Below, in pieces: positions 5,585-32,000 of a stretch of DNA of 32,000 bases (the first letter of the stretch is position 1; every line of letters begins with the position of its first letter). Under the pieces are notes generated by a model. That model did not search any database and was not told the origin of the DNA. It saw only the letters and a list, made by a program, of their open reading frames with translations. The position numbers and the translations under genes were made by a program. This DNA comes from Dickeya solani IPO 2222 (GTDB lineage: Bacteria; Pseudomonadota; Gammaproteobacteria; Enterobacterales; Enterobacteriaceae), in the NCBI RefSeq assembly GCF_001644705.1, contig NZ_CP015137.1:4770001-4802000 (forward strand), given 5' to 3'.

Positions 5585-5763
5585 CCCCGGCAAACGTCAT
5601 CCGAGTCACGACAAATCATATCCGGTACGGCGTCCGGCGTACCGGAACAGCTTATCGCTGCGCGGGCATCAACCGTGCTTCCACGGGGCGAATGTGTTAT
5701 TCTACTACGCCTGTTTTTCGCCTTAACTGGGTATCACCACATCATTGAGTTCGCGAGACGTCC

Positions 5764-7250: not shown

Positions 7251-7883
7251 GTGGCTAAAAACTATCATGACATTACGCTGGCAATGGCAGGTATCTGCCA
7301 GTCTGCTCATTTGGTGCAGCAATTGGCTCATCAGGGCAGTTGTGATATGGACGCGTTAAAAGCGTCACTGGAAAGCATCATGAACATCAATCCACCCAGC
7401 ACGCTGGATGTTTTTGGCAACACCGAACGTAATCTAAAGATCGGGCTGGAAACCCTGCTGGGTATTCTCAATTCGTCACGCGAAGGGCTGGGCGCGGAGC
7501 TGTCGCGCTATACTTTCAGCCTGATGGTGCTGGAACGCCGCCTGCACAATAACCGTGAAGCGATGGACGAGCTGGGCAACCGCATCAGCCAGTTGGACCG
7601 ACAACTGGAGCACTACGACCTGCTGTCGGATACCTTCATTAATGTGCTGGCAGGCATTTACGTGGACGTGATCAGCAAGCTTGGCCCGCGCATTCAGGTG
7701 ACCGGCGCGCAGGAAGTGCTGAAGAACCCGCAGATTCAGGCGAAGGTCCGGGCGGCGCTGCTGGCCGGGATCCGCGCCGCCGTGCTCTGGCAACAGGTGG
7801 GCGGCAGTCGGCTGCAATTGATGTTCTCCCGCAGCAAGCTGGTGCGCCACGCGCAGGAGATCCTGGCCCGCTGCCACGACTGA
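7251..7883 (+). CDS. hflD: high-frequency-of-lysogenization protein HflD
   Basis: From GTG 7251 the product begins (M)[28 protein letters not shown]. This matches the E. coli HflD N-terminus MAKNYYDITLALAGICQ. AGGAG at 7241-7245 is the SD. The ORF-track start at 7104 would add 49 unconserved residues. Confidence 0.9.
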
Positions 7884-18172: not shown

Positions 18173-18191
18173 ATTCCTGTTGACAAGCCGT

Positions 18192-18211
18192 CCCTTGACG
18201 CACGTCAAGGG
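18192..18211 (-). promoter_or_regulatory. perfect 20-bp palindrome with an FNR/CRP-family core TTGAC-N4-GTCAA
   Basis: CCCTTGACG CA CGTCAAGGG. The core at 18195-18208 keeps the TTGA-N6-TCAA of the FNR consensus TTGAT-N4-ATCAA. The palindrome centre lies 28.5 bp upstream of the TATGAT hexamer, so about -40.5/-41.5, which is class II geometry. E. coli feo is known to be FNR-activated and Fur-repressed. Confidence 0.5.
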
Positions 18212-18242
18212 AGGTGAAGATTGGGGGGAGTGGTGGGAAGGT

Positions 18243-18431
18243 ATGGGGTTTATAAGTACAGAGGAGAACGATGCTATCGGTTATGCCCCTGATGGAATGG
18301 AGAACACATTGCTGCCGCAGCTCACGTTCAAGGTTTGCTGGCTGGAAGACTTCGGTTTTACCTCTGACCAGTCGGTTATCGTTACCGCTGAGCGAGGTGA
18401 GTTGGTGATTGAGGTGGAACTCAAGTTCTGA
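18243..18431 (+). CDS. SymE-like (AbrB/SpoVT-fold) type I toxin-family small protein
   Basis: AIGYAPDGMENTLLPQLTFKVCWLEDFGFTSDQSVIVTAERGELVIE aligns by pattern with E. coli SymE [45 protein letters not shown]. Start uncertain: ATG 18243 follows a G-rich SD-like stretch. In-frame TTG codons at 18180 and 18195 are alternatives. Confidence 0.6.
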   Translation: MGFISTEENDAIGYAPDGMENTLLPQLTFKVCWLEDFGFTSDQSVIVTAERGELVIEVELKF

Positions 18432-18433
18432 CC

Positions 18434-18468
18434 GGTAAAAACAACAATCCCGGCGCGAGGGCCGGGAT
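18434..18468 (-). terminator. rho-independent terminator of the cdi operon (between convergent cdiI and the symE-like gene)
   Basis: Stem ATCCCGGC (18447-18454) / GCCGGGAT (18461-18468) with loop GCGAGG. On the minus strand it is followed by TGTTGTTTTTACC, 10 nt after the cdiI stop. Confidence 0.7.
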
Positions 18469-18477
18469 CACAGTTGA

Positions 18478-18768
18478 TTATTTATAAAATAAACTATTTG
18501 AGTCTATTATTTTACATACTTCATTTTTTATTGTATCTATCCGTTGCTCACCATATAAGCCTCGTTCAACCATCATTCTAAAATCATCCATGATATAATT
18601 ATATAAATTTGGAAAGCCATTACGCTGTTTGCCCTCAAGTATTCTTAAAGACTTAAGGATCCCTTTACAACACAAGTCACTACCTTCTTCTTCAACAACA
18701 TATTCAATGACCTTATTTAACAGATTTACAAGCCTTGATATATCCTGCACATCATTTTCTGTTAACAT
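18478..18768 (-). CDS. cdiI: putative CdiI immunity protein (no recognisable family)
   Basis: 96-aa ORF starting 4 nt after the cdiA stop (minus strand ...AAAGGTGATTAGATG, with the SD AAGGTGA inside the cdiA 3' end). This is the canonical position for the cognate immunity gene. The DNA is very AT-rich (hand count 9/60 G+C for 18481-18540). The sequence looks helical and acidic. Confidence 0.7.
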   Translation of the reverse strand: MLTENDVQDISRLVNLLNKVIEYVVEEEGSDLCCKGILKSLRILEGKQRNGFPNLYNYIMDDFRMMVERGLYGEQRIDTIKNEVCKIIDSNSLFYK

Positions 18769-18772
18769 CTAA

Positions 18773-21700
18773 TCACCTTTTATTTGTTACTTGTTCAGGA
18801 AACGATTTTCTAAATTCATCATAGGTATAGACTTTACCGGTCTTACCGTCACGCACCGATTTTATCCATTCTGATGAATAATTCCGCGGCATCAAAATTT
18901 GATCAGCCCCACCATCATATTTGGGCTTTTCACTACCCGGTTTCTGTTCACCAACTATGCCTATATTAATTTTTGTATTTTCTGGAATTTCAATCTGTGC
19001 TTCAAACTGTGAGGTACTCCATTTCTTATATACAGCAGTTTCATTGCGTCCCGCATTTTGTTCAGTTGTAGCATACCCACCATCAAGTTTCGCTTGATCT
19101 GAGCTACCACCAAACTTCCTGTAAACTAAAACGGGTTCATTGGTAATTACCGTCTGATAGTTACCATCTTTAAAAGATTTTTTAATATCCCCCGGTAAAC
19201 TATCTTGCTGAGTTAATGTTACTTTACTGTCTATCTTCGTACCGGCAGTAGCAGGTGCACCTTGCTCCACTTTTTTAGCTACATTACCAGCAACCGATAA
19301 TTCGCCAGCTTCTGCCGCAACACCTTTAAACCCGGCCAGCGTACTCACAATCCCATGTAGTTGCATCGCCGTATCATACTGCGACGCCACTTCATCCCAG
19401 CCTTTTCCGGTTGATTTGGCTATGGCGGTAATGGCTGCATCGCGTGTGATGCTGCCTTCATCCAGCCCTTTCAGGATGGCGCTTGCATTAGCCGCGTCCT
19501 GCGGGTACAGGTCTTTGTAGATCAGACGGTAGCTCGCCGCACTCTCGCCATAACTATTCAGCGCCTGCTGCGCCTTTGCCACCAGTGCCGAGCAGGCCCC
19601 GCCTGATTTGTTGCCCTGCGTACAAATATCGTGGATGGCCTGATCGCGATCTTTGTCCAGTTTGCGGGTATCCGCCAGCTCTTTGGCTTCGTCCGCCGTC
19701 AGTGTTCCGGCTTTCTCCTTACGCTCCAGATCGGCCTTCGTCTGAGCTTCTGTGGCGCTGAGATAGTTATTCTCCACCGCATTACGCCCGGTTTGCGCGC
19801 CTGTCGCCGCACCGGCGGTGTTACCCGACGCAATCCCCGACGCCAGACCGGCCGCCAGTGACGCCAGCGCGCTTACCGACTGTTTTTCCGCTTCCGTCAG
19901 GTCGCTGGTGTCCCGCCCTGAGTACAGCTCCTTCATGATCAGCAGCCGCGCCGTCAGTTCACCGCCAGCCGCGCCCACCGCTCCCGCCACCGCATCCTTA
20001 CCGGACAGTTGCGCCACCACCGCGCCCATCAGCGCATGCCCCATCGCGTTGGCCGCGATGTCCGATGCCGTGGCTTTACTCTCGTCCGCCGGCATCGTCA
20101 CGCCTTTCACCAACTGCGCCAGATACGGCGCCGATGCACCGGCCAGCGCCTGCTGCAGGTTGCCGCCGCCCGCCAGCGCCTGAATCGCCGCCGTCGCCGC
20201 CTGTGTCGCCCGTTGCAGATCGCTGCCCGTGCCGTAAGACTGCATCACCGCCTTGTAAGCCGGCGTTTCCGTCAGGTCTTTCTTATATTTATCCCAGTCT
20301 TTTTCGGATGCGTTATCCGGCGGCCGTTTCACATCGCCTTTGGCTTCCGCCGCCCGCACCGCGCGGATTTCGCCTTCGGTACGGACAACGTCCATCACCT
20401 GCGCGCCCAGCTCACCGACCATCTGCGCCGTCTGCAGGCGTTTCTGCTCTTTCTCCTTGTCAAAGATCGAGCTCAGTGCATTATTGGCGTGCTCCACATC
20501 CCGGCTCAGGCCGGCAATATCCTGCTGCTGACCGGCCTGATTACGGATAATCAGCGCCCCGTCGCTCACCGCCGCGTAGGTGGTGCTGCCGGCATTGCCG
20601 CCCCGACCCATCGACATCAGTGCCGAAGGCGCGGTCAGCGCGGCCGATTTCAGCATATCCGACATACTCAGCGACGGACTGGCGCTCAGTCCGATACCGC
20701 TGTGCGACACCGAAAACTCGGCCCGGTTGTCGATATTGCTGAAGCCCAGCGTGCCGGTATCCAGCCGGTTTTTATCCGCGCTGGCGGTCGAACCAATCAC
20801 CGCGCCGTCCAGCTGCGTGTGGTTGCCGACGTTGATGTCGTAACCGCCCTTGCCGGCAAACAGCCCGGTCTGCTGCTGCACGCTGTCAAAACTGCTGTGC
20901 ATTTTGTCCTGGCTGGCGCTGAGATAGCCGCTGCCGGTCATGCTGCCAAAGGTAAAGCTACCGCCCGCCGACACGCTGGTCTGCTTCGAGTCATAGCGGT
21001 TACTGTCCTGCTGGCTTTTCAGCAGCAGGTCGCCGCCTACGTTTGCCACAATGCGCTCGCCGCTGACCTGCGCCCCGGTCAGGCGCGTGTCGCCGCCGCT
21101 GGTCAGGACAATCTGCTGCCCGGCATCCACCGTGGTTTCCGACCAGCTGTTGCCGTTGCCGAGTTCACGGCCTTTGGCCGCGTTGACGTTGGCGAAGACG
21201 CTGAATCCGGCACCGCTATTGCTCAGGCCGAAACTGACGCCAATATTCCCGCCGCTGCTGCTGTTGCTGCCGGTCATCGACTCGGTGTTGCGTGCCGATA
21301 GCAGATTAATCGCCCGGGACGCATTCAGCTCCACATTGTTGGCCGCTTTCAGCTGGCTGCCGACGGCGGTGATATCGCCCTGACGCGCCACCACGCTAAT
21401 ATCATGGCCCGCATTTAGCGTCGAGGCAAAACTCTGCGACTGTTCGCTGGTCTGGCTGCTGCTGGAGCGCTGCGCCCCCAGCGACACGCTGATGCCGACA
21501 AACGACGACGCCCCCTGATTGTTGGTATCAATCTGGGTGCCCTGATAAGCCTGATACCCCGACAGCGCCGCCTTCATCCCCTGCAGCGCCTGCAGACGAC
21601 TGTCGCTCTGTTCCCGCACCGCCTGAACCGCCTGCACCGCACTATTCAGCGCCGATCCCACCACACCCGATAGCGTTACCGTCAATCCGGCGGTTTTTTG

Positions 21701-24700
21701 CTCCATCTGGCGCGACTGTTTACGGGTATCGTAGCCCGGATCAATCGTCACGCTGTTGCCCGTCACCTGAATGTCCCGGGCCGCAATCACATCGGTAGCC
21801 GCCATCGACACCGCCTGCCCGGCATTCAGGCGCACCGACCCACTGGTGGTGCCCAGCGTGCTCACGCTCTGGCTCTGGGTAGTCGCCTTATCGTCCTGTT
21901 TCTGGCTCATCGACGTACTGCCGATAGTAAACCCGATGCCGCCCCCGCTGAACACCCCGCTCTTCTTGCGGCTGTGCTCCTCGTAGTTACGGTAGGTCTC
22001 CACGCTCGCCGCGGTAGTGATGTCATGCCCCGCCGTCAGCGTCACCTCCCCGTCCGCCGCCACCGCCGAGCCCTGCACCCCGAGGTCATGCCCCGCCGTC
22101 AGCGCCACGCTGTCCCCCGACAGCAGCGTCCCCTTCTCCGTCGTCTGCTGCGTGTCACGCAGCGTGTGCGTGGTGGTCTTCGACAGGAACCCCTTCTTCA
22201 CCGTGGTTTCTTCAAAAAAATCATGCCGGCTTTCCGTCGCCGACAGCAGGCTCAGGTCGCGCCCCGCCTGCGCCGTCAGCGCGCCGCGCGTCTCCGCCTG
22301 CGCCCCCTGCAGCGTCAGGTCCTGACCCGCCCGCAGGCTCAGCCCCTCCCCGGCGTTCAGCACCGTCCCCTGCTGACTCACCGTCTGCTGCCAGTCCAGA
22401 TGCCGTTTCCACGCGTTCGAACTGAACTGATCCTCACCGGCCGACAGCAGGCTCAGGTCACGCCCCGCCGACAGTCCCAGCGTCCCCGCCGCGCTCAGTT
22501 GCGCCGCCGTGCTGCTCAGGTCGCGACCGGCGCTCAGGCTCAGGTCGCCCCCGCTGGCCACCGTGCTCTGCACCAGCCCCTGACTGCGCCGCTCGCTGGC
22601 GCCGCCATCCTGACGCACCGTGTCCGTCACCGTGGTCAGCGCACTCAGCCGGATGTCGTTGCCCGCCGCCAACTGCAGCGGCCCGCCCGCGCTCAGTTGT
22701 GCCCCGTTCAGCGCGATATCGTACCCCGCCTGCAGCGTCAGCCCGCCTTGCGCCGTTATCAGCCCGGCCTGCCCGATATCGGTGCGCGTCAGCGACCCGC
22801 TGCCCCGCCCGTCCTGCGCCGCCGTCTGCCACTGGTTACGGGTGGTGGTGTTGGTGATGTCGCCGCTGACGCTCGCCAGCGTCACCGTGTTGCCCTGAAT
22901 GGTGGCGCTGCGGTTGGTCAGGTTGCCCAGCGCCACCAGATTCAGCGCGCCGCCCGCGTTCAACAGCCCGCCCTCACTGTTGGTCAGGTTACCTCCGCTG
23001 GCGACAGCAAGGGCGTCCTGCGCCGTCACCGTGCTACCGCGGTTGTCGATGTCCCCGCCCGCGCTCAGGCTCACGCTGTTCGCCACGATGCGGCTGCCCT
23101 GCAGGTTGCTCCTGTCCGCCTGCGCCAGATACAGCTTCGGCGCCAGCACCGTCTGCCCGCCGACGCTAATGTTCTCCCACCACACCAGGCTGTGGCTCAG
23201 CCCCGCCACCTGCGCCGACGTCAGGCTCATCCCCAGTTGCAGACCCAGCCGGCTTTTCTCCGCCGCCGCGTTGTCCATCAGCTGCTGCATCTGCGCCAGG
23301 TCCGACCCCACGCCGTTCAGGTAGCGCTGCCCGGTCTGGCTCAGCACCGCGTTGCTGATATAGCGGGTGTCAAACGCCGCGTCCCCCAGAAAGCGGTAGT
23401 CGTGCTCCGCGTCCAGATTCAGCTTGCCCAGCAGGTAGGACGACCCCAGCACCTGCGTCGGGTCGGTCAGCGTCGGGCGGGTTTCCACCGGCACCGTGGT
23501 GCCCGGCGTCTGCCCCAGCAGGCCGCGCAGGTCGTCGAACAGGCGGTTGTCCACCTGACCAAGCTGGCTCAGCGTCGGGTTGGTGCGTATCAGGTAGCGG
23601 CTGTCGCCGGCGGTATCCGCCACGAACAGCCCGTTCTGGCTGGTCGGCAGCGGGTAGTCGGTCAGCGACGGGCTGCCCAGTTGCTGCAGCCCCTGGGTCA
23701 GTGCCGCCTGCAACTGGCCGAAGGACAGCGCTGCCAGCGGTGTCAGCGCGGTAGCCGTCACCGGCGAGGCGCCGGGCGCCGTCGCCTGAAGATGCCCGCC
23801 CGCCAGGCCGTCAGGCAGGCTGAGCACGGTGGCTGTTACCGGTGTTCCCCCCGCTATCGCCCCGGCCGTCAGCGCGGTGTCGGCCATCCCGGCGACCGGG
23901 GTGCCGCCGGCAGGCAGGTCGCCGGTGCGCGTCACCGTGGTGTAACCACCGGCCAGACCGCCGGCCTGCCCGGCCAGCGCCACGTTGCCGCTGCCGTCCG
24001 GTAGGGAGGTGGGGCTGACGCTGCCCGCCGCACCATTCAGCCCGCGGTCAGCCTGTGCGTCCACCGGGGTGAGTGCATTCACGCCAGCCATTGTCGGCGT
24101 CGCTATCACCGGGATAAAGCCGCCGCTGCCCGGCTGTAAATTGGTGTTGCTGATATTCTGGGAGAAGCTGGCGGTTATCGAGCCGCCCGCCTGAATGGTC
24201 GCGGCGTAGGTTTGGCCGGGGGTGGATATGATTTGTCGGTCTTTTAATACATATCTAAGCCTATCTCTATCAAACCGACTTCTATCGCGAAAATATATCT
24301 TATATTCGCCAAGATGCTCCGAATACTCGTAATCATTCCACCTGTTATCTCTTTTAGCTTTTTCTTGTAGCCACCCTATAGGTGCCATACCTAGCAATAA
24401 TTCATCATCGCCAACTTCGTATTCATATACTAATGACTCAGATATAGAGCCCACCTGATAGGAAGCATTTTTCAAAACGTTTCCTGTCATAGAAATATTT
24501 TTTTTAGACGATATTACGGATGCATCATTAATTAATAAAGCGGATGCAATATTAATATTGCCTGATGATAGAATATTAGCCCCTCCCCCATTAGCAGTTA
24601 TTTTTATATCTTTAGATGCATATGAAAATATTGCTGTAGATTTTTCTTTACTAACAGGAAATGGGAAAAAATATATTTCATCAAGGTTTGGACCATCTTC

Positions 24701-27700
24701 TCTACTTGGATTAGAGTTAGCCTCATAAGTTGCAAGCTCACCATCTTTAAACCAATCAATAGGAATATAGATCGTCGTCCCGCCCGCCCATGAGGGCACC
24801 TCCGCCGCCGTACTGCTGCTCTCGGTGACCGTCAGCCCCTCCCGCTGGTTGGTCAGCGTCCCGGTGCGTACCGTGATATCCCCCCGCTGCGTCTCGATGG
24901 TGCCCGAACTGTTCAGCACGCTGCTGCTGGCATTGCCTGCCGCGTCACGCTGTATCCACAGGCTGTCTCCCGCCAGGATATTCCCGAACCGGTTCACCAG
25001 CGCCGCCGACAGCAGCTGCAGGTCGCCCCCGCCGTACAGCAGGCCGCCGTTCTCTATCAGCCCGCCCGCCTGCACCAGCAGGTCGCCCGCCGTCCCCACA
25101 AAACCCCGGTTGACGATGTTGCCGGTCGCCAGCAGGCGCAGCGGCCCGCCGCCCTGGATACTGCCGCTCTCCGCCTGGCTGATAGCCGCCGCCGACAGCG
25201 TGCTGTTGCCGCCGCCCGCCACGATGCGACCCTGCTGCGTCAGCGTGCCGGTGCTCGTCACCGTCACCCCGTTGCCCTGCAGCGTCCCCGCCTGCACCAG
25301 GTCCCCGGTCACGGCCAGCGTCAGCTGGCCCCCCGCCGCCAGCGCGCGCGTCAGGGTGAACGGGCCGCCAATGTCCGCCCGCAGGTCGCCCAGCGCCGCC
25401 AGCTGGCCGTCCTGCGTCAGTTGCCCGGTGCGCAGCTGCAGCCCGCCCGCGCTGTACAGCCGCGCCCCGTCCGCGTTGTTGAGGCTGGCCGCCTGCAGCG
25501 CCAGCCGCGTCAGCCCCAGCAGCGTGCCCCGGTTGTCCAGCGCGCCGTCGGTGGTGATGTCCAGCTGCCCCGCCTGCACCGTGCCGTGGTTGGTCCACTG
25601 CGGCAGGTGCAGCGTCAGCCCGTTCTGCGCCTGCAGCGTGCCGCTGTTGTCCAGCTGCGCGGTGGTCAGCGTCAGGTCCTGCCCCTGCACCCAGCCGGCG
25701 TTGGTCAGTTGTGTCGCGCCCAGCGTCAGTTGTCCGCCCGACAGCAGCTGCCCGCCGCTCTGGTTGTCCAGCAGGGTGCCGCCCTGCACCGTCAGCCCGC
25801 TGCGGCCCTGTATCTGCCCGCCGTTGCTGACCGTCGCGCCGCCCAGCGACACCGTCCCGCCGAGCAGCGTCGCCCCGGCGGTGTTCTCCAGTTGCTCATC
25901 CAGCGTGACGTTCAGCTGCCCGGCGCCGGTAATGCCGCCCTGATTGCGCAGGCGCGCGGCACGCAGCGTCACGTCCTGCGCCTGCAGGTGTCCGGCCTGG
26001 TCTATCGTCGCCGCACTCAGGCTGAACGCGCCGTTGCCCCCCACCTGGCTGCCCGCCTCGCCCACATAGGTGCCGGTCAGTTGGATGTTGCCGTCGTCCA
26101 GCCCCAGCAGCGTGCCCAGGTTGCGCAGCCGGTCCGCGGTCAGCGTCAGCCGGCCCGACTGCCACAGCCCCTGGTTCAGCAGCGTGCCGGTGGCGAGACT
26201 GCCGGCGCCGCCGCTCAGCAGCCGTCCGCCGGCCTGATTGGTGACAGCGTCACTGAACTGCGCGTCAAAGCCGCCCAGCGCGGTCAGCGTCCCGCCGTTG
26301 TCGAACTGCCGCCCGCGCAGCGTCGCCATGCCCTGCGTGGTCAGTTGCCCCAGGTTGGTCAGGCTGGCGGCCTCCAGTTGCAGCCCGCGCTGCCCCAGCA
26401 GCGTGCCGTGGTTGGTCAATGACGTACCGCTCACGTTCAGCACGCCGGCCTGCCACAGCCCGGCGTTGTCGGCGTTATCGATGGCCAGCGTCGCTGTGCC
26501 GCCGCTCAGCAGTTGGCTGTCGGCATTGCCGGTATAGCGGGACACCCCGTTCAGCGTCAGCGCTGACGTGCCCTGCATTCTGCCTGCGTTGGTGACCGTG
26601 TCCGCCCGCAGCGTCAGCGTATCTGCCTGCACGCTGCCCGCGTTATCCAGCTGTTGCGCCGTCACGCCGGCCGTGCCGTTGCCCAGCAGCGACCCGCCGG
26701 CGGTGTTGGTCAGTTGCCCCCGGCTGGTCACGTCCAGCTGCGACAGCCCCACCAGCCGCCCGCCGTTGGTCAGCGTGCCGGTGGTCAGTTGCAGCCGGTC
26801 GCCGCCGATGTCGCCCTGCTGCGTCACCGTGTCCGCCGTCAGCGTCACCGCGCCGCTGCCCAGCACCTGACTGCCCGCCCCGCCGGTATAGCCCTGCGTC
26901 AGGGTCAGCGTGATGCCGTCCGTGCCCAGCAGCGCGCCGCCGTTGTCCAGCGACGCCGCGCTCAGCAGCAGGTTTTTCCCCTGCCACTGTCCCCGGCTGT
27001 TCACCGACCCGGCCTGCACCTGCCAGTCGCCGTTGCTCAGCAGACGCCCGTCCGCGCCCACACGCAGCCCGCCGCCCAGTGTCAGCACGCCGCCCTGCTC
27101 CGCCAGCAGCGTGCCGCGGTTGTCCAGACTGTCGCCGGTCAGCAGCAGGGTGCGGCTGTCCAGCCGGCCCGCGTTGGTCATGTCGCCGGCCGCCAGCGAC
27201 AGCGCGCCGCTGGCCGCCAGCGTGCCCTGATTATCCAGCCGGCGACCGGTTATCCGGCTGTCACCGCCGGCGGTCAGCGTACCGGTGTTGGTCAGACTGC
27301 CCGGACTGGCTGCCTGTACATCCTGCGCCAGTTGCTGTACCGCCCGCAGCATGGCGCGCAGCGGGTCACTGCCGGTGGCCGGCAGTGTGACCGCCAGGTC
27401 GCCGTCACTGTGTATCTGCCCGCCGTTGCGCAGGCTGTCGGCGGTCAGCTGCAGGGTGCCGGCCTGCCACTCACCGTCATTCTCTGCCGTCGCCGCGTTC
27501 AGCACCGCCGCCCCCTGCGTCAGCAGTTTGCCGGTGGCGGTGTTGGTCAGCGCGCCGCCGGCCGTCAGCGTCAGCGCCGACAGCCCCAGCAGTTGCCCGG
27601 CGTTGTGGACCGTGCCGGCCGTGGCGTGAAGACGGTCACCCTGCCAGCGGCCCTGGTTGTCCAGCGCAGCGGCCGTCAGGCGGCTTTCACCGTTGCTCAG

Positions 27701-30700
27701 CCACTGCCCGGATGTCTGATTGCGTGCCGTACCGGCTATCGCCAGCGTCAGCGCGTCCATTCCCAGCAGCGTGCCGCCGTTGTCCAGCGTCTCCGCCGTC
27801 AGGCTCAGTGTCTGCCCTTCCAGCCGCCCGTGGTTGGTCAGGGTACCGGGTAAGGTCACCGTCAGCCCCTCGCGTCCGCTCAGCAGCCCGCCATTGTCCA
27901 GCGCGGCGGCGCGGGCCATCAGCGTCTGCCCCGCAAGCGTGCCCGTGTTGCCCAGCGCTCCGCGCAGCTCCAGCGTCAGCGCCTCAGCGGCGCTCAGCCG
28001 GCCGCCGTTGCTCAGCGTGTCGCCGGTGATCGTCACCGTCTTCCCCTGCCAGCGACCGCCGTCACCCACCACGCCGTTGCCGCTCAGCGTCAGCGCCCCG
28101 TCGCTGTACAGACTGCCGCCGCCCGCGTAGTCCCCCGTCAGCGTCAGCGCCCCGCCCGACGCCAGCTGTCCCTCGTTGTGCAGGTCTGCCCCGGCAACCG
28201 TCAGGTTGCCCAGTCCCGACACCGTGCCCCGGTTGTCCAGCCCGCCCAGCGTCAGCGTGGTGTCGCCGTTCGCCGCCAGCGTGCCGCTGTTGGTCAGCGT
28301 CCCCGCCGCAGAGAGCGTCGCCGTCAGCGCGCCGTCGCTCTGTATCCGCCCGCCGTTGCGCAGGCTGCCCGCCGTCAGCAACAGGTTGCCGGCCTGCCAC
28401 TCGCCGTCATTCTCTGCCGTCGCCGCGTTCAGCACCGCCGCCCCCTGCGTCAGCAGTTTGCCGGTGGCGGTGTTGGTCAGGGTGCCGCCGGCCGTCAGCG
28501 TCAACGCCGACAGCCCCAGCAGTTGCCCGGCGTTGCGGACCGTGCCGGCCGTGGCCTCAAGGCGCGCGCCCTGCCACTGACCCTGGTTGTCCAGCTCAGC
28601 GGCCGTCAGGCGGCTTTCGCCGTTGCTCAGCCACTGCCCCGACGCCTGATTGCGTGCCGTCCCGGCTATCGCCAGCGTCAGCGCGTCCATTCCCAGCAGC
28701 GTGCCGCCGTTGTCCAGCATGTCCGCCGTCAGGCTCAGCGTGCGGCTCTCCAGCCGGCCGTGGCTGGTCAGCGCGCCGGTCGTCGTCACCGTCAGCGAAT
28801 CCAGCCCGGTGACCGTACCGCTGTTGGTCAGTTGCCCGCCGCCAATAGCGACCGTGTGACCCTGCCAGCGCCCGCCGTCGTTGGCGAGGGTCGCGCCGCG
28901 CAGCGTCAGCGCCGCATCGCTGTACAGGCTGCCCGCGCCGGCGTAATGGCCGGTCAGCGTCAGCGCGCCCTGCGCCGCCAGTTGCCCGGCGTTGTCCAGG
29001 TCCGTTCCGGTGACCGTCAGGTCGCCCCGCACCGACACCGCCCCCCGGTTATCCAGCCCGCCCAGCGTCAGCGTGGTGTCGCCGTTCGCCGCCAGCGTGC
29101 CGGTGTTGGTCAGTACGCCCGCCGGGGACAGCGCCACATCAAGCGCGCCGTCGCTCTGTATCCGCCCGCCGTTGCGCAGGCCGTCCGCCGTCAGCCGCAG
29201 GCGGCCGCTCTGCCACTCGCCGTCGTTGTCCACCGTCGCCGCCGTCAGCACCGCCGCCCCCTGCGTCAGCAGTGTGCCGGTGGCGGTGTTGGCCAGCGCG
29301 CCGTGCGCCGTCAGCGTCAGCGCCGACAGCCCCAGCAGTTGCCCGGCGTTGCGGATGCGGGCCGCCGTGGCGGTCAGGCTGTCGCCCTGCCACTGCCCCT
29401 GGTTGTCCAGCGTGCCGGCCGTCAGGCGGCTCACGCCCTGACTCAGCCACCGGCCCGACGCCTGATTGCGCGCCGTCCCGGCTATCGCCAGCGTCAGCGC
29501 GTCCATCCCCAGCAGCGTGCCGCCGTTGTCCAGACTGTCCGCCGTCAGGCTCAACGTCTTCCCTTCCAGCCGCCCGCGGTTGGTCAGGGTGCCGGGTAAG
29601 GTCACCGTCAGCGAATCCAGACCAGTGATATTGCCGGTGTTGGCCAGTTGCTGACCGATGAGCGCGATACGCCCGCCGACCAGCGTGCCCTGATTGTCAA
29701 GCTGCTGCCCGGTGATATCTATTGTACTGCCCTGCCAGCGCCCGCCGGCGTTGGCGATATCGGCGCCGCGCAGCGTCAGCGCCGCCTCACTGTACAGACT
29801 GCCGCCGCCCGCGTAGTCCCCCGTCAGCGTCAGCGCGCCGCGCGACGCCAGCTGCCCGGCGTTGCCCAGCGTCGTGCCCTGCACCGTCAGCCCGCCCAGC
29901 GCCGACACCGCGCCCCGGTTGTCCAGCCCGCCCAGCGTCAGCGTGGTGTCGCCGTTCGCCGCCAGCGTGCCGCGGTTGGTCAGCATCCCTGTCGCAGAGA
30001 GTGCCGCCGTCAGCGCGCCGTCACTCTGTATCCGCCCGCCGTTGCGCAGGCTGTCCGCCGTCAGCAGCAGATTGCCGGCCTGCCATTCACCGTCATTCTC
30101 TGCCGCCGCCGCGTTCAGCACCGCCGCCCCCTGCGTCAGCAGTTTTCCGGTGGCGGTGTTGGTCAGCGCGCCGTCGGCCGTCAGTGTCACCGCCTGCCGC
30201 CCCTGCAGCGTGCCGCTGTTGTCCAGCCCGTCCGCCGTCACGCTCAGCGTGTCGCCCGCCATCACTCCCCGGTTGGCCGTCTGCCCCGCCTGTACCGTCA
30301 GCGCGCCCCCGGCCAGCAGCGACCCGCTATTGTCCAGTTGCGTCTGCGCCTGCACCGTCAGCGTCCCGTCCGCCGACAGCGTGCCGCCGTTGCTCAGCGT
30401 GTCCGCCGTCAGCGTCACCTGCCGCCCGCTCACCGTGCCCCGGTTGTCCAGCTCAGCGGCCGTCAGGCGGCTTTCACCGTTGCTCAGCCACTGCCCCGAC
30501 GCCTGATTGCGCGCCGTCCCGGCTATCGCCAGCGTCAGCGCGTCCATTCCCAGCAGCGTGCCGCCATTGTCCAGCGTGTCCGCCGTCAGACCGAGCGCCC
30601 GTCCTTCCAGCCGCCCGCCGTTGCTCAGCGCCCCGGCCAGCGTCACCGTCAGCCCGTCGCGCCCGCTCAGCAGCCCGCCGTTGTCCAGCGACGCCGCCCG

Positions 30701-32000
30701 TACCGTGGCGGTCTGCCCCGCCAGCGTCCCCGTATTGCCCAGCGCTCCGCGCAGCTCAAGCGTCAGCGCCTCAGCGGCGTTCAGCTGGCCGCCGTTGCTC
30801 AGCGTGCCGCCGGTGACCGTCACCGTCTTCCCCTGCCAGCGGCCGCCCTCGCCCACCACGCCGTTGCCGCGCAGCGTCAGCGCCCCGTCGCTGTAAACAC
30901 GACCCGCCCCCGCGTAGTCCCCGCTCAGCGTCAGCGCGTCGCCCCCCGCCAGTTGCCCGCCGTTGTCCAGCGTCGCGCCCTGCACCGTCAGCCGGCCCAG
31001 CGCCGACACCGTGCCCCGGTTATCCAGCCCGCCCAGCGTCAGTACCGTGTCGCCGTTCGCCGCCAGCGTGCCGCTGTTGCTCAGCCCGCCCGCCAGCATC
31101 ACCGCCAGCGACCCGTCACTCTGTATCTGACCGCCGTTGCGCAGGCTGGCCGCCCCCACCGTCAGCCCGCCGCCCGCCAGCAGCGCGCCGTCCCACTCCA
31201 CCGTCTCCCGCCCGTCCAGCGTCAGGTCGCCCGTCGCCTGCCAGCGCCCCGCGCCGCTCACACGCCCGCCGCTGACCGTCACCGTCTGCGCCCCCGCCGC
31301 CCCGTCCAGCGTCAGCTGCCCCCCGGTCAGCGTCAGCGCGCTCCCCGCCTGCCAGGCTCCGCCCGACGCCTGGCTCACCGCCCCCGACGCCGTCAGGCTC
31401 ACCCGGTCGCCCGCCAGCTGCGCCTGGCCCAGCATCAGCTCCGCCCCGGTCAGCGTCAGACCGTACCCCGGCTGGATAACCCCGTCGTCGCGCACCCCGG
31501 CGCTCAGCTGTCCGCCCTGCGCCGTGATGCGCCCGGCGCTGTCCAGCGTCAGGTCCCGCCCCGCCCGCGTCCGGCTCTCCGTCAGCGTGATGCCCTGCTC
31601 ACCCCGCAGCCTGACCGTGCCCTGCGCCTGCTGGTTACCCTGCAGCGCCAGCGTCACGCCCTGCGCCGTCAGGTCGCCCTGCGCGATGGCGCTCCCCACC
31701 TGCAGCCGCCCGTTCGCCGACAGCTGAATGTCCCCCTGCCGCGCGCTCAGCCCGGCGGTGTTTACCCCCACTCCCTGCTCCGTCGACACCAGACTGATGC
31801 GGTTGGCGTACATCCCCCCCAGCGCCCCGGTGTCCAGCGCCAGCGCCGGCGACGGCCCCGCTCCCGCCTGCGCCGTCACCCGTCCGTCCGTGCCCACCCG
31901 GTTGGCCCCCAGCACCACCCGCACGTCCCGCGCGCTCAGCCCCGCCTGCAGGCTCGCCGTGCGCGCTATCAGCGCAAAATAGTCGCTCCCGCCGGCGTCC
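18773..32000 (-). CDS. cdiA: CdiA contact-dependent inhibition toxin/filamentous exoprotein, 5'-truncated by the window edge
   Basis: The reading frame is open from the window edge (no stop between 31924 and 31999), leaving 4408 codons visible. The order is the established CdiA one. FHA-1-type ~20-aa beta-helix repeats (..LTLTA..LDNGG.L..) come first. Next is a non-repetitive block at the RBD position, then a YP-type region (DYPLPTSQNGLFV, SRYLIRTNPTL, RFLGDAAFDTRYI). FHA-2-type repeats follow, then the pretoxin region ending GRNAVENN, then a 330-aa CT. The signal peptide, TPS domain and cdiB must lie beyond 32000. Confidence 0.95.
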   Translation of the reverse strand, partial: DAGGSDYFALIARTASLQAGLSARDVRVVLGANRVGTDGRVTAQAGAGPSPALALDTGALGGMYANRISLVSTEQGVGVNTAGLSARQGDIQLSANGRLQVGSAIAQGDLTAQGVTLALQGNQQAQGTVRLRGEQGITLTESRTRAGRDLTLDSAGRITAQGGQLSAGVRDDGVIQPGYGLTLTGAELMLGQAQLAGDRVSLTASGAVSQASGGAWQAGSALTLTGGQLTLDGAAGAQTVTVSGGRVSGAGRWQATGDLTLDGRETVEWDGALLAGGGLTVGAASLRNGGQIQSDGSLAVMLAGGLSNSGTLAANGDTVLTLGGLDNRGTVSALGRLTVQGATLDNGGQLAGGDALTLSGDYAGAGRVYSDGALTLRGNGVVGEGGRWQGKTVTVTGGTLSNGGQLNAAEALTLELRGALGNTGTLAGQTATVRAASLDNGGLLSGRDGLTVTLAGALSNGGRLEGRALGLTADTLDNGGTLLGMDALTLAIAGTARNQASGQWLSNGESRLTAAELDNRGTVSGRQVTLTADTLSNGGTLSADGTLTVQAQTQLDNSGSLLAGGALTVQAGQTANRGVMAGDTLSVTADGLDNSGTLQGRQAVTLTADGALTNTATGKLLTQGAAVLNAAAAENDGEWQAGNLLLTADSLRNGGRIQSDGALTAALSATGMLTNRGTLAANGDTTLTLGGLDNRGAVSALGGLTVQGTTLGNAGQLASRGALTLTGDYAGGGSLYSEAALTLRGADIANAGGRWQGSTIDITGQQLDNQGTLVGGRIALIGQQLANTGNITGLDSLTVTLPGTLTNRGRLEGKTLSLTADSLDNGGTLLGMDALTLAIAGTARNQASGRWLSQGVSRLTAGTLDNQGQWQGDSLTATAARIRNAGQLLGLSALTLTAHGALANTATGTLLTQGAAVLTAATVDNDGEWQSGRLRLTADGLRNGGRIQSDGALDVALSPAGVLTNTGTLAANGDTTLTLGGLDNRGAVSVRGDLTVTGTDLDNAGQLAAQGALTLTGHYAGAGSLYSDAALTLRGATLANDGGRWQGHTVAIGGGQLTNSGTVTGLDSLTVTTTGALTSHGRLESRTLSLTADMLDNGGTLLGMDALTLAIAGTARNQASGQWLSNGESRLTAAELDNQGQWQGARLEATAGTVRNAGQLLGLSALTLTAGGTLTNTATGKLLTQGAAVLNAATAENDGEWQAGNLLLTAGSLRNGGRIQSDGALTATLSAAGTLTNSGTLAANGDTTLTLGGLDNRGTVSGLGNLTVAGADLHNEGQLASGGALTLTGDYAGGGSLYSDGALTLSGNGVVGDGGRWQGKTVTITGDTLSNGGRLSAAEALTLELRGALGNTGTLAGQTLMARAAALDNGGLLSGREGLTVTLPGTLTNHGRLEGQTLSLTAETLDNGGTLLGMDALTLAIAGTARNQTSGQWLSNGESRLTAAALDNQGRWQGDRLHATAGTVHNAGQLLGLSALTLTAGGALTNTATGKLLTQGAAVLNAATAENDGEWQAGTLQLTADSLRNGGQIHSDGDLAVTLPATGSDPLRAMLRAVQQLAQDVQAASPGSLTNTGTLTAGGDSRITGRRLDNQGTLAASGALSLAAGDMTNAGRLDSRTLLLTGDSLDNRGTLLAEQGGVLTLGGGLRVGADGRLLSNGDWQVQAGSVNSRGQWQGKNLLLSAASLDNGGALLGTDGITLTLTQGYTGGAGSQVLGSGAVTLTADTVTQQGDIGGDRLQLTTGTLTNGGRLVGLSQLDVTSRGQLTNTAGGSLLGNGTAGVTAQQLDNAGSVQADTLTLRADTVTNAGRMQGTSALTLNGVSRYTGNADSQLLSGGTATLAIDNADNAGLWQAGVLNVSGTSLTNHGTLLGQRGLQLEAASLTNLGQLTTQGMATLRGRQFDNGGTLTALGGFDAQFSDAVTNQAGGRLLSGGAGSLATGTLLNQGLWQSGRLTLTADRLRNLGTLLGLDDGNIQLTGTYVGEAGSQVGGNGAFSLSAATIDQAGHLQAQDVTLRAARLRNQGGITGAGQLNVTLDEQLENTAGATLLGGTVSLGGATVSNGGQIQGRSGLTVQGGTLLDNQSGGQLLSGGQLTLGATQLTNAGWVQGQDLTLTTAQLDNSGTLQAQNGLTLHLPQWTNHGTVQAGQLDITTDGALDNRGTLLGLTRLALQAASLNNADGARLYSAGGLQLRTGQLTQDGQLAALGDLRADIGGPFTLTRALAAGGQLTLAVTGDLVQAGTLQGNGVTVTSTGTLTQQGRIVAGGGNSTLSAAAISQAESGSIQGGGPLRLLATGNIVNRGFVGTAGDLLVQAGGLIENGGLLYGGGDLQLLSAALVNRFGNILAGDSLWIQRDAAGNASSSVLNSSGTIETQRGDITVRTGTLTNQREGLTVTESSSTAAEVPSWAGGTTIYIPIDWFKDGELATYEANSNPSREDGPNLDEIYFFPFPVSKEKSTAIFSYASKDIKITANGGGANILSSGNINIASALLINDASVISSKKNISMTGNVLKNASYQVGSISESLVYEYEVGDDELLLGMAPIGWLQEKAKRDNRWNDYEYSEHLGEYKIYFRDRSRFDRDRLRYVLKDRQIISTPGQTYAATIQAGGSITASFSQNISNTNLQPGSGGFIPVIATPTMAGVNALTPVDAQADRGLNGAAGSVSPTSLPDGSGNVALAGQAGGLAGGYTTVTRTGDLPAGGTPVAGMADTALTAGAIAGGTPVTATVLSLPDGLAGGHLQATAPGASPVTATALTPLAALSFGQLQAALTQGLQQLGSPSLTDYPLPTSQNGLFVADTAGDSRYLIRTNPTLSQLGQVDNRLFDDLRGLLGQTPGTTVPVETRPTLTDPTQVLGSSYLLGKLNLDAEHDYRFLGDAAFDTRYISNAVLSQTGQRYLNGVGSDLAQMQQLMDNAAAEKSRLGLQLGMSLTSAQVAGLSHSLVWWENISVGGQTVLAPKLYLAQADRSNLQGSRIVANSVSLSAGGDIDNRGSTVTAQDALAVASGGNLTNSEGGLLNAGGALNLVALGNLTNRSATIQGNTVTLASVSGDITNTTTRNQWQTAAQDGRGSGSLTRTDIGQAGLITAQGGLTLQAGYDIALNGAQLSAGGPLQLAAGNDIRLSALTTVTDTVRQDGGASERRSQGLVQSTVASGGDLSLSAGRDLSSTAAQLSAAGTLGLSAGRDLSLLSAGEDQFSSNAWKRHLDWQQTVSQQGTVLNAGEGLSLRAGQDLTLQGAQAETRGALTAQAGRDLSLLSATESRHDFFEETTVKKGFLSKTTTHTLRDTQQTTEKGTLLSGDSVALTAGHDLGVQGSAVAADGEVTLTAGHDITTAASVETYRNYEEHSRKKSGVFSGGGIGFTIGSTSMSQKQDDKATTQSQSVSTLGTTSGSVRLNAGQAVSMAATDVIAARDIQVTGNSVTIDPGYDTRKQSRQMEQKTAGLTVTLSGVVGSALNSAVQAVQAVREQSDSRLQALQGMKAALSGYQAYQGTQIDTNNQGASSFVGISVSLGAQRSSSSQTSEQSQSFASTLNAGHDISVVARQGDITAVGSQLKAANNVELNASRAINLLSARNTESMTGSNSSSGGNIGVSFGLSNSGAGFSVFANVNAAKGRELGNGNSWSETTVDAGQQIVLTSGGDTRLTGAQVSGERIVANVGGDLLLKSQQDSNRYDSKQTSVSAGGSFTFGSMTGSGYLSASQDKMHSSFDSVQQQTGLFAGKGGYDINVGNHTQLDGAVIGSTASADKNRLDTGTLGFSNIDNRAEFSVSHSGIGLSASPSLSMSDMLKSAALTAPSALMSMGRGGNAGSTTYAAVSDGALIIRNQAGQQQDIAGLSRDVEHANNALSSIFDKEKEQKRLQTAQMVGELGAQVMDVVRTEGEIRAVRAAEAKGDVKRPPDNASEKDWDKYKKDLTETPAYKAVMQSYGTGSDLQRATQAATAAIQALAGGGNLQQALAGASAPYLAQLVKGVTMPADESKATASDIAANAMGHALMGAVVAQLSGKDAVAGAVGAAGGELTARLLIMKELYSGRDTSDLTEAEKQSVSALASLAAGLASGIASGNTAGAATGAQTGRNAVENNYLSATEAQTKADLERKEKAGTLTADEAKELADTRKLDKDRDQAIHDICTQGNKSGGACSALVAKAQQALNSYGESAASYRLIYKDLYPQDAANASAILKGLDEGSITRDAAITAIAKSTGKGWDEVASQYDTAMQLHGIVSTLAGFKGVAAEAGELSVAGNVAKKVEQGAPATAGTKIDSKVTLTQQDSLPGDIKKSFKDGNYQTVITNEPVLVYRKFGGSSDQAKLDGGYATTEQNAGRNETAVYKKWSTSQFEAQIEIPENTKINIGIVGEQKPGSEKPKYDGGADQILMPRNYSSEWIKSVRDGKTGKVYTYDEFRKSFPEQVTNKR
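18776..19240 (-). other. CdiA-CT C-terminal toxin domain (155 aa, unassigned family)
   Basis: TKIDSKVTLTQQDSLPGD...VLVYRKFGGSSDQAKLDGGYATTEQNAGRNETAV...IEIPENTKINIGIVGEQKPGSEKPKYDGGADQILMPRNY...FPEQVTNKR. It contains no His and no Cys. GC drops to ~32% (19/60 for 18961-19020). Confidence 0.7.
19241..19765 (-). other. CdiA-CT N-terminal (cytoplasm-entry/translocation) domain, 175 aa
   Basis: Lies directly after VENN: YLSATEAQTKADLERKEKAG...DICTQGNKSGGACSALVAKAQQ...MQLHGIVSTLAGFKG. It has a helical character and a single Cys pair (C-x9-C). The position matches the entry domain of the two-domain CdiA-CT model. Confidence 0.55.
19766..19777 (-). other. VENN motif (pretoxin/CT boundary)
   Basis: The plus strand GTTATTCTCCAC is the reverse complement of GTG GAG AAT AAC. 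Context is TGAQTGRNAVENNYLSATE. Confidence 0.95.
24225..24775 (-). other. low-GC cassette inside cdiA at the receptor-binding-domain position
   Basis: ~550 bp at ~25% GC (15/60 for 24481-24540) within a ~70% GC gene (44/60 for 25021-25080). It encodes IYIPIDWFKDGELATYEANSNPSREDG...NISMTGNVLKNASYQVGSISESLVYEYEVGDDELLLGMAPIGWLQEKAKRDNRWNDYEYSEHLGEYKIYFRDRSRFDRDRLRYVLKDRQIIS. Boundaries are approximate. Confidence 0.6.
27400..31150. repeat. four tandem higher-order repeats (periods 930, 816, 1041 bp) within the cdiA FHA-1 region
   Basis: The near-identical anchor ccggctatcgccagcgtcagcgcgtccat(t/c)cccagcagcgtgccgcc recurs four times. The antisense ORF peptide MRAVPAIASVSASIPSSVPPLS starts at 27720, 28650, 29466 and 30507. 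In the CdiA frame, LDNGGTLLGMDALTLAIAGTARNQ occurs 4 times. Outer boundaries are approximate. Confidence 0.9.

Follow-up and report, generated by a model that had tools for sequence, protein, structure and literature searches.

A CdiA-Borne Toxin Domain of Dickeya solani with a Predicted ADP-Ribosyltransferase Fold Represents a Widespread, Unnamed Toxin Family

Introduction

NAD+-depleting toxins are emerging as a recurrent weapon in bacterial competition. [quoted passage not shown] Here, a toxin/immunity cassette at the end of a cdiA gene for contact-dependent growth inhibition (CDI) was analyzed in Dickeya solani IPO 2222. The window, that is, the whole stretch of DNA analyzed, covers 32,000 nucleotides (NCBI RefSeq assembly GCF_001644705.1, contig NZ_CP015137.1, positions 4,770,001 to 4,802,000 of the forward strand), and all coordinates below are window positions. 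The variable C-terminal region of this CdiA protein (CdiA-CT) ends in the toxin domain in question, and a candidate immunity gene, cdiI, lies directly downstream. On CdiA C-termini, the genome paper of D. solani remarks only that they are not the same as in D. dadantii (PMC4028081).

The best fold matches to the Dickeya domain are Tne2 from the T6SS of Pseudomonas protegens (6B12) and Tse6 (Tne1) from P. aeruginosa (4ZV0/4ZV4). The "Tne2 family" was reportedly defined by Tang et al. 2018. Tne2 and Tse6, like the model of the Dickeya domain, form a compact, beta-rich palm of the ADP-ribosyltransferase (ART) type at the C-terminus of a polymorphic toxin, and a small neutralizing protein, in Dickeya a candidate one, is encoded directly downstream. 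Tne2 and Tse6 are carried by PAAR proteins of the T6SS, whereas the Dickeya domain is carried by CdiA of the type V secretion system (T5SS). The Dickeya domain also differs from both in about 35 additional N-terminal residues and, in the enterobacterial branch, in a C-terminal helix.

Among the polymorphic toxins of enterobacteria is Rhs1-CT of Serratia marcescens Db10 (Tne3), the NADase that Hagan et al. described (PMC10539506) and whose structure is 6XTD. Its NAD(P)+ glycohydrolase activity is proven, and the aromatic F1386, R1418, and the strictly conserved Q1452 are essential (PMC10539506). Tne4, the Rhs1-CT of SJC1036, matches the Pfam family TNT (PF14021) at 3e-34 (PMC10539506). Tne5, typified by an Rhs-CT of Pluralibacter gergoviae (JBC 2026), is an ART-fold NAD(P) glycohydrolase family found on T6SS PAAR/Rhs, CDI, and type VII secretion system (T7SS) LXG carriers (PMC13285283). 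TNT is the C-terminal domain of CpnT from M. tuberculosis, and TelB is an LXG NADase from Streptococcus intermedius. The known immunity proteins of NADases are mutually unrelated, yet in every case a basic residue enters the active site (PMC10539506). Beside transferase toxins, ADP-ribosylhydrolase-type immunity genes are frequent (PMC11699363).

Fold and Superfamily of the Toxin Domain

The analysis concerns the following features; aa denotes amino acids, ORF an open reading frame, and RBS a ribosome-binding site.

18773..32000, minus strand: cdiA, encoding the CDI exoprotein; its 5' end lies beyond the window, and the longest in-window ORF starts at 31924
19766-19777, minus strand: VENN motif by translation, start of the variable CdiA-CT, with 330 residues after VENN
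18776..19249, minus strand: C-terminal toxin domain, 158 aa (TAGTKIDS...TNKR), low in G+C, free of His and Cys, and predicted to adopt an NADase fold of the ART/TNT type
18478..18768, minus strand: cdiI, encoding a 96-aa candidate immunity protein; RBS AAGGTGA, 4-nt gap, G+C 0.32

An AlphaFold2 model of the toxin domain, built from a 59-sequence alignment, reached a predicted local distance difference test score (pLDDT) of 96.4 and a predicted template modeling score (pTM) of 0.90. It is mostly beta, with strands at residues 26-36, 40-46, 59-61, 82-88, 93-99, 116-119, and 129-134, and with short helices. This model superseded an earlier, poor one made from 8 sequences (pLDDT 67). When the PDB was searched with the 59-sequence model using Foldseek, ranks 1 to 8 were occupied exclusively by TNT-type NAD(P)+ glycohydrolases (prob 0.69-1.00), and the next match had a prob of 0.11. 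The eight structures are as follows, with template modeling (TM) scores for the first.

Tne2, 6b12_A: E 9.3e-4, prob 1.00, TM 0.49 (query-normalized) and 0.64 (Tne2-normalized)
Tse6, 4zv4_C, 4zv4_D, and 4zv0_A: prob 0.99, 0.80, and 0.85, respectively
Serratia Rhs1-CT, 6xtd_A: prob 0.99
Aspergillus fumigatus NADase, 8pmr_C and 6yge_A: prob 0.85 and 0.69, respectively
Fusarium NADase, 8r15_A: prob 0.77

With the 8-sequence model the identical proteins had already come out on top, a result that was suggestive only. Among predicted structures of viral proteins (BFVD), Foldseek found no significant match.

A second indication came from the Pfam family ADPrib_exo_Tox (PF03496), which gave sub-threshold matches in 7 of the 59 members (best E 8.9e-5), the Dickeya protein itself being unmatched. 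The one match that was inspected scored 13.8 bits versus a gathering score of 23.4 bits. In it, the hairpin E-A-E-I-x-[IV]-P-x-G-x-x-L-N-I-G falls on positions 156-180 of the 196 positions of the profile, in the ExE / beta5-beta6 region. On the basis of the TNT-type fold neighbors and the PF03496 similarity, the family is assigned to the ART superfamily with NADase toxins as its nearest solved relatives, and the toxin domain is modeled as a TNT/Tse6/Tne2-type fold.

An earlier note on this DNA, made from its letters alone and referred to below as the sequence-only reading, had offered two mutually exclusive interpretations of the domain. The first, a TNT/ART NAD+ glycohydrolase-like layout, turned out to be the right lead, in view of the eight top-ranking structures and the ADPrib_exo_Tox matches. 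Of the comparisons it had proposed for the last 155 residues, Pfam/HMMER returned no sequence-family match, and Foldseek returned TNT-type NADases, with Tne2 at prob 1.00. The second interpretation is treated together with the other alternatives below.

Conserved Residues and Candidate Active Site

Conservation was counted over 142 aligned domains and is numbered on the 158-aa Dickeya segment.

R44 (19118..19120, minus strand): Arg of the YRxFG motif in a beta-strand, 142/142
G47: 142/142
G57: 139/142
Tyr59-Ala-Thr61-Thr62 (19064..19075, minus strand): family pattern G-x-[FY]-x-[ST]-[ST]; F/Y59 141/142, [ST]61 138/142, [ST]62 139/142
R/K68: 140/142
W/F77: 141/142
Glu83-Ala-Gln85 (18995..19003, minus strand): E83 125/142 (88%); position 85 is E in 61/142 (43%) and Q here; PF03496 aligns this segment with its ExE / beta5-beta6 region
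P89: 137/142
G97: 141/142
Q102: 129/142
G113: 140/142
Asp116-Gln117 (18899..18904, minus strand): part of the GGxDQ[IV]L[LM]P motif in a beta-strand; D116 133/142, Q117 139/142
W128: 137/142

R44, which stands where ART motifs have their "R", is a candidate NAD+-binding Arg, and residues 59-62 are a candidate counterpart of the "STS" / aromatic ribose-binding segment of ARTs. Q117 may correspond to the catalytic-site Gln that is strictly conserved in TNT-type NADases (PMC10539506). In the TNT type, a Gln, an aromatic residue, and an Arg line the cleft; by pattern, Q117, F/Y59, and R44 may correspond to them. In terms of the R-S-E triad of Arg in beta1, Ser-Thr-Ser in beta2, and [QE]-x-Glu in beta5, R44 and [ST]61-[ST]62 are conserved and E83 largely so, while the position of the second, catalytic Glu is occupied by E in 43% of the members and by Gln85 in Dickeya. 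Judged from the alignment, the polar residues that the family conserves agree with a site of the ART type that binds NAD+ and includes a near-invariant Gln.

The final 155 residues (18776-19240) contain 0 His and 0 Cys, as the sequence-only reading had pointed out, and this is a family-wide character: no column of the alignment has more than 10% His or Cys. The motif strings quoted in that reading, VLVYRKFGG, GGYATT, FEAQIEIPENTKINIGIVGEQ, and DGGADQILMP, are all present in the sequence, and its placement of the VENN motif at the start of a 330-aa CT agrees with the translation.

Sequence Family and Its Carriers

Searches of the toxin domain against Pfam, NCBIfam, and the PDB sequences gave no meaningful E-value; within the CT, DUF6862 in its N-terminal part was the only family found. 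A phmmer search of the PDB sequences with the CT gave nothing, and a hidden Markov model (HMM) of the family gave only a chance match there (CFAP182B, E 0.11). A word-indexed homology search yielded 8 relatives of the toxin, for the most part fragments that came from Pectobacterium, Photorhabdus, and Xenorhabdus; with the family profile it yielded 13. These were too few for judging the family, which was opened up by an exhaustive search with a profile built on the 8 relatives. Among 1.84 billion representatives of clusters at 50% identity, 354 matched at E<=1e-3, and of these 220 reached E<=1e-10 and 54 reached E<=1e-30.

The domain ends at most 10 aa from the C-terminus in 154 of 156 sequences. 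The carriers include PT-TG (9/69) and LXG (8/69) proteins, CdiA proteins with PT-VENN/DUF637/TPS, and proteins with RHS repeats, PT-HINT, or an eCIS core domain. On plasmids of the Bacillus cereus group, the domain is carried by PT-TG/WXG100 proteins, and a hypothetical gene of 100 aa follows 25 nt downstream; RefSeq names these carriers only by their N-terminal domain, as "pre-toxin TG domain-containing protein" or "WXG100 family type VII secretion target". As far as the sequence comparison reaches, the toxin family is a widespread and unnamed one. Found in Proteobacteria, Bacillota, and further phyla, its carriers belong to contractile injection and to secretion of types V, VI, and VII. The family appears as a large family of several secretion systems and not as a peculiarity of Dickeya. 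A literature search found no paper characterizing any member and no biochemical data, which is no proof of absence.

Several carriers deserve separate description. Besides the eCIS core fusion (P0065, 1398 aa), a cargo of an extracellular contractile injection system, there is a protein in which the domain is fused to annexin repeats (P0073, 2004 aa), which are an unusual carrier. Plasmid pBCA2 of Bacillus cereus (NZ_CP015728.1, 22827-24525; L097) is phage-like and encodes a PT-TG toxin with its 100-aa partner between a Y-family polymerase/YolD pair on one side and a block of endolysin, holin, and tail-spike genes on the other. By this placement, mobile, phage-related elements contribute to the spread of the cassette in Bacillus. 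An ENA metagenome contig with a T7SS locus (L016, 3643-5510) contains an LXG gene of 453 aa and a toxin domain gene of 169 aa that overlap by 4 nt, and this pair is probably a frameshifted or split LXG toxin. Two nearly identical candidate immunity genes of 85 aa are present in the same locus, at 5535-5792 and 7502-7759.

The Candidate Immunity Protein CdiI

The stop codon of cdiA is TGA at 18773-18775, and the ATG of the 96-aa ORF is at 18768, 4 nt past it and preceded by the RBS AAGGTGA. The ORF thus occupies the cdiI position assigned to it by the sequence-only reading, with the same coordinates, and it is probably translationally coupled to cdiA. Searches of the 96-aa protein against Pfam, NCBIfam, and the PDB sequences gave no usable match, so that the earlier statement that neither protein can be placed in a characterized family stood as far as curated families are concerned. 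Matches to Ku_PK_bind (best E 0.012) were taken as noise from helical composition.

Homologs of CdiI form 15 clusters from Dickeya, Pectobacterium, and Pantoea with 67-99% identity, and they are always 96 aa long. In Dickeya and Pectobacterium brasiliense, CdiI is encoded 4 nt after a full-length CdiA with the identical CT type, with toxin/immunity identities of 100/99% and 87/85%. In an orphan module of Photorhabdus aegyptia, the toxin is 68% identical and a 95-aa immunity protein 47% identical. The identities of toxin and immunity protein therefore co-vary among Dickeya, Pectobacterium, and Photorhabdus. Because it is conserved in 15 clusters and co-varies with the toxin, the 96-aa ORF is regarded as a real gene and not a chance reading frame. 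In Pantoea, the cdiI homolog is found in orphan immunity arrays with Imm35, Imm42, Imm45, and CdiI_ImmP, in some cases behind a short 3' stub of the toxin.

The downstream partners were surveyed more widely by a metagenome scan based on the alignment of a 9-sequence subset with the seed GGADQIL[LM]P, which returned 80 loci. A downstream ORF was present in 67 of them; 55 of these 67 ORFs encode 84-107 aa, and nearly all of them start within about 20 nt of the toxin stop. By BLAST the downstream ORFs fall into two clusters. One consists of the CdiI family and distant members recognized with jackhmmer, and the second is typified by ...R-x-Y-x-D-x-x-S-D-Y... proteins of LXG and PT-TG loci. When the two clusters were compared with hhalign, the probability was 26-31%, most of the length was aligned, and an Arg-x-x-x-Asp motif was superposed (DFRMMxD in CdiI, with R64 invariant). 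This is suggestive of homology between the clusters. A single immunity candidate from Firmicutes gave an hhalign probability of 0.3% with the CdiI alignment. Neighbors other than small ORFs in the 80 loci include one macro-domain protein and no ARH-type hydrolase, as well as flavin-reductase-like and SseB-like proteins.

The macro-domain protein is a membrane-anchored ThsA_Macro protein of 276 aa (E 1.1e-44), encoded after the match at 1691-1951 of JAEEGL010702378.1 (L090) behind a degenerate toxin copy. One subset of toxins has an extension of about 65 aa and is followed by a flavin-reductase-like protein (PF01613; L071, L073, and L075), and another is followed by an SseB-like protein of about 299 aa (L052 and L053). 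In L016, the SseB gene is the second gene downstream of the toxin domain.

The orphan module of Photorhabdus aegyptia lies in an array (JFGV01000113.1, L007) that contains an Ntox17-domain fragment with a 71-aa ORF. Next come a 124-aa ORF and the 210-aa toxin homolog, the stop of the former overlapping with the start of the latter, and then the 95-aa immunity gene. The Pantoea-type arrays were seen, with toxin stubs, in Pantoea genomes and a JGI metagenome contig (L013, L014, and L015). The metagenome contig L015 retains a 75-aa remnant of the toxin C-terminus (P0152, "filamentous hemagglutinin") before the cdiI homolog and shows 88.5% nucleotide identity with positions 18462-18948 of the window.

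Comparison with Named Toxin Families

The family HMM detected none of the founders of Tne1 (Tse6), Tne2, and Tne3 (4ZV0, 6B12, and 6XTD) among the PDB sequences at E<=10. Likewise, the CdiI profile did not match the Tni2 and Tsi6 chains of 6B12/4ZV0 at E<=10. PF14021, the family matched by Tne4, showed no match at E<=10 in the Dickeya CT and none at E<=1 in the 59 members.

The essential residues of Serratia Rhs1-CT, to which the Dickeya domain has a fold prob of 0.99, have possible parallels in the Dickeya family: the aromatic F/Y59, an Arg (R44, R/K68), and Gln Q117. Rhs1-CT differs in its carrier, which is Rhs of the T6SS and not CdiA. The immunity proteins differ, too; RhsI1 of SJC1036 has 124 aa and RhsI1 of Db10 has a fold of its own, whereas the Dickeya CdiI has 96 aa.

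Tne5 was the most worrying candidate for identity because its carrier distribution is identical, and like the Dickeya family it is without a Pfam model. The Tne5 sequence was recovered from the genome of P. gergoviae ATCC 33028 through a mutagenesis primer in the supplement of PMC13285283. Identity was rejected, as hhalign of the family alignment against Rhs-Pg 1330-1503 gave a probability of 0.1% over 8 aligned columns. Tne5 is an alpha/beta protein with five helices and a pocket centered on Lys1392 (PMC13285283), whereas the Dickeya family is predicted to be mostly beta and has an invariant Arg.

For the R-x-F-G, G-x-Y-x-[ST], and GG-x-x-Q motifs of TNT and TelB there are counterparts in the Dickeya family. 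TelB needs an Arg (R626) for its activity, and the Dickeya family has LXG-fused members. Fungal TNT-like NADases are among the fold matches of the Dickeya domain, while TNT itself (4QLP) is absent among the 50 matches listed. The R-S-E ADP-ribosyltransferases of the C3/VIP2/iota type (PF03496) have the motif order in common with the Dickeya domain, namely the strand Arg, [ST][ST], the beta-hairpin Glu, and h-h-h-P-x-G. The Dickeya domain, in contrast, has about half their size, is without their helical parts, and does not conserve the second catalytic Glu. As some members seem to be of Bacteroidota origin, Bxa, an ADP-ribosyltransferase with MuF from Bacteroides, was also taken into account; it was rejected, since neither a MuF domain nor a PF03496-level match was found in the family members.

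By sequence, the family is separate from Tne1-3, Tne4/TNT, and Tne5. The class to which it is assigned, the ART-fold NAD+-consuming polymorphic toxins Tne1-Tne5, TNT, and TelB, is known already; what is new is an unnamed sequence family with an unnamed immunity partner. The suggestion of the sequence-only reading that the pair could be a new toxin-immunity family is therefore right as far as the sequence family is unnamed and seemingly uncharacterized, but the family falls into that known class and is large and widespread.

Proposed Mode of Action and Alternative Explanations

The analysis shows the gene layout, the spread of the family, its pattern of conservation, the predicted fold with its closest solved relatives, and the linkage of toxin and immunity gene. 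What the toxin does as an enzyme, which residues take part in catalysis, how it is imported, and how CdiI confers immunity we infer as follows. CdiA would be exposed on the cell surface, and contact with a neighboring cell would lead to delivery of the part after VENN. The first ~175 residues of the CT, composed of DUF6862 and the next segment, would presumably carry the toxin across the inner membrane of the target; this entry role is presumed from the general CdiA-CT architecture, as outlined in PMC9424206. The last ~155 residues would fold as an ART-superfamily palm of the TNT/Tse6/Tne2 type and consume NAD(P)+ in the target cytoplasm. The toxin would most likely be an NADase that converts NAD(P)+ to nicotinamide and ADP-ribose, with a collapse of redox metabolism and a stop of growth. 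Its candidate active site comprises Arg44, G-x-[FY]59-x-[ST]61-[ST]62, Glu83, Gln102, and Asp116-Gln117. In the producer, the 96-aa CdiI would bind and block the toxin, possibly by placing its invariant Arg64 (DFRMM) into the active site, by analogy with the described NADase immunity proteins.

The favored explanation, with a probability of roughly 60%, is that CDI delivers an ART-fold toxin which consumes NAD(P)+, most probably as a glycohydrolase, and which a small binding protein neutralizes. The following points weigh against it. The fold similarity is moderate, with a query-normalized TM of 0.49 and 10-16% identity, and there is no sequence-level link to the characterized NADases (the family HMM against the PDB sequences at E<=10, and PF14021). 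TNT and TelB depend on a His (H661 in TelB), whereas the family has no conserved His, and Q117 is equated with the TNT-type catalytic-site Gln by pattern. The arrangement of R, [ST][ST], and E is reminiscent of true R-S-E ADP-ribosyltransferases. As stated above, the literature search found no characterized member. Finally, the import function of the N-terminal CT half is presumed, and that half has no counterpart in E. coli. Megablast with the cassette and blastn with the entry-domain region found no match in E. coli genomes, so that no import class can be borrowed from the CdiA-CTs of E. coli.

The strongest competitor, considerably less probable than an NADase, is a genuine ADP-ribosyltransferase that, with NAD+, ADP-ribosylates one specific, essential target of the recipient, for example an RNA or a protein like FtsZ or EF-Tu, as do Tre1, TreTu, Tre23, RhsP2, and Bxa, with CdiI blocking it by binding. 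The R-S-E-like layout points in this direction, with Arg44 on a strand, [ST]61-[ST]62 on the strand after it, and Glu83 where a beta-hairpin begins. So do the ADPrib_exo_Tox matches in 7/59 members, one of which, as aligned, falls on the ExE / beta5-beta6 part of PF03496, and the full E-x-E found in 61/142 members. However, all eight nearest solved structures are hydrolases, and neither C3, VIP2, iota, Tre1, nor any other transferase is among the 50 matches listed. Every PF03496 match is under the gathering score, and the catalytic second Glu of ExE is conserved in just 43% and is Gln in the Dickeya protein. Immunity of the hydrolase type is also essentially absent, with one ThsA-macro protein, next to a degenerate fragment, in 80 loci.

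A bolder version of the ART assignment is doubtful, and somewhat more so than the transferase. In this version, the Dickeya toxin would be the founding CDI-borne example of a sixth family of ART-fold NAD+-utilizing toxins, with an active site of its own and one divergent immunity superfamily of about 90 aa (R-x-x-x-D) throughout. The active site may then consist of R44, [ST][ST]61-62, E83, Q102, and D116-Q117, with no His. The immunity superfamily might be paired with the toxin across CdiA, LXG, PT-TG, and Rhs, the Arg of R-x-x-x-D plugging the active site. In the boldest form, the enzyme would be no plain NADase; it could transfer ADP-ribose onto a new cellular target or form a non-canonical NAD+-derived product.

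It is improbable, though conceivable, that an ART-like fold serves another chemistry here, be it a cyclic or isomeric ADP-ribose product, the modification of a nucleotide or cofactor, or a toxic effect of binding as such. New uses have been found for the ART scaffold again and again. In Tne5, an ART-like fold lacks the canonical active site (PMC13285283), and ADP-ribosyl cyclase toxins are described in PMC12356396 and PMC12605009. The residue set R44, E83, Q102, and D116-Q117 with no His is a combination unseen in characterized families. Positive evidence for such a chemistry is lacking, however, and the fold neighbors are read most simply as pointing to NAD(P)+ hydrolysis.

The second interpretation of the sequence-only reading, a metal-dependent PD-(D/E)xK nuclease (IPE-x12-EQK) that cuts target DNA or RNA, is rejected as very improbable: nucleases are generally held to be the commonest CdiA-CT activity (cf. 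PMC3150448 and PMC3585180), and this one sequence has the motif-like string, but the proposed catalytic residues are unconserved in the family (E90 10/142, E101 41/142, K103 5/142), the predicted fold is not that of a restriction endonuclease, no nuclease is among the 50 PDB fold matches listed, and no nuclease family was found in Pfam or NCBIfam.

The favored explanation, an NAD(P)+-consuming toxin, would add a new branch to a known type of weapon and not a new kind of system, and no concept is overturned. The family is large (354 clusters at 50% identity), yet it has no entry in Pfam, NCBIfam, or the PDB. If the activity is shown, the toxin would be an addition to the catalog of NADase/ART toxins and one of the few CDI-delivered NAD+-targeting toxins with experimental study. 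It would also provide an annotation for hundreds of "hypothetical" toxin/immunity genes, among them genes of Dickeya and Pectobacterium, which are pathogens of potato, and a test of the "basic residue in the active site" rule on a new immunity fold.

Origin of the Cassette

The G+C content is 0.60-0.68 in the upstream part of cdiA versus 0.32-0.39 over 18350-19250, which covers the toxin domain and cdiI. By part, it is 0.37-0.39 in the toxin domain, 0.32 in cdiI, and 0.55-0.60 in the VENN-proximal half of the CT, the last being near that of upstream cdiA. The break in composition coincides with the boundary of the toxin domain. As the drop is limited to the toxin domain and cdiI, the cassette looks horizontally acquired. 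Since the VENN-proximal half is close to cdiA in its composition, the recombination junction seems to lie within the CT at ~19250-19300 and not at VENN. Positions 18478-19249 would then represent a low-G+C toxin/immunity cassette that was gained horizontally and joined by recombination to the end of cdiA in Dickeya.

The cdiA Gene and Its Surroundings

The remaining features of the locus are as follows.

19757..19906, minus strand: PT-VENN pre-toxin domain, Pfam PF04829, E 1.8e-20
19250..19765, minus strand: N-terminal half of the CdiA-CT, at the position of the cytoplasm-entry (translocation) domain, with two Cys residues
19547-19750, minus strand: DUF6862 inside the N-terminal CT half, Pfam PF21726, E 1.5e-9 and 2.5e-9
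18444-18471, minus strand: terminator-like hairpin with an 11-bp stem (6 G-C pairs) and a T-run, at the end of the cdi operon

The cdiA ORF extends on the minus strand from 18773 to the window end and encodes at least 4383 aa. Its identity as CdiA is indicated in the window by PT-VENN (E 1.8e-20) and DUF6862 (E 2.5e-9). Syntenic cdiA genes of Dickeya encode 4066-4483 aa and contain TPS, Fil_haemagg_2, PT-VENN, and DUF6862; the nucleotide identity between the window and the syntenic loci of several Dickeya genomes is 95-98.5%. The locus has a VENN-demarcated variable end on an exoprotein with TPS and filamentous hemagglutinin (FHA) repeats, TPS and Fil_haemagg_2 being taken from the syntenic full-length genes. 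The recognition of a CdiA-CT/CdiI module in the sequence-only reading was correct in view of PT-VENN, DUF6862, the coupled ORF, and the co-variation of toxin and immunity protein.

Downstream of the cdi operon, a convergent SymE-like ORF is followed by a feoA-feoA-feoB-feoC operon. The SymE-like ORF is at 18180-18431 on the plus strand, convergent to cdiI, and matches the Pfam family SymE_toxin at E 8.5e-10. In Dickeya, Pectobacterium, and Pantoea, such ORFs, which are type I toxin-like, recur on the opposite strand directly after cdiI and between orphan modules of cdiA-CT/cdiI. Further SymE-like copies were found at 5188-5433 and 9696-9833 of L009, 5344-5469 of L011, 1379-1573 and 6877-7026 of L013, and 9584-9784 of L014.

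The FHA-repeat region (20000-31900 of the window) contains several long, near-identical protein blocks; one example, "...LDNGGTLLGMDALTLAIAGTARNQASGQWLSNGESRLTAAELDN...", is present in about 4 copies spaced roughly 330 aa apart. The sole repeat reported by Tandem Repeats Finder with a maximum period of 500 is a 114-nt repeat at 30603-30884.

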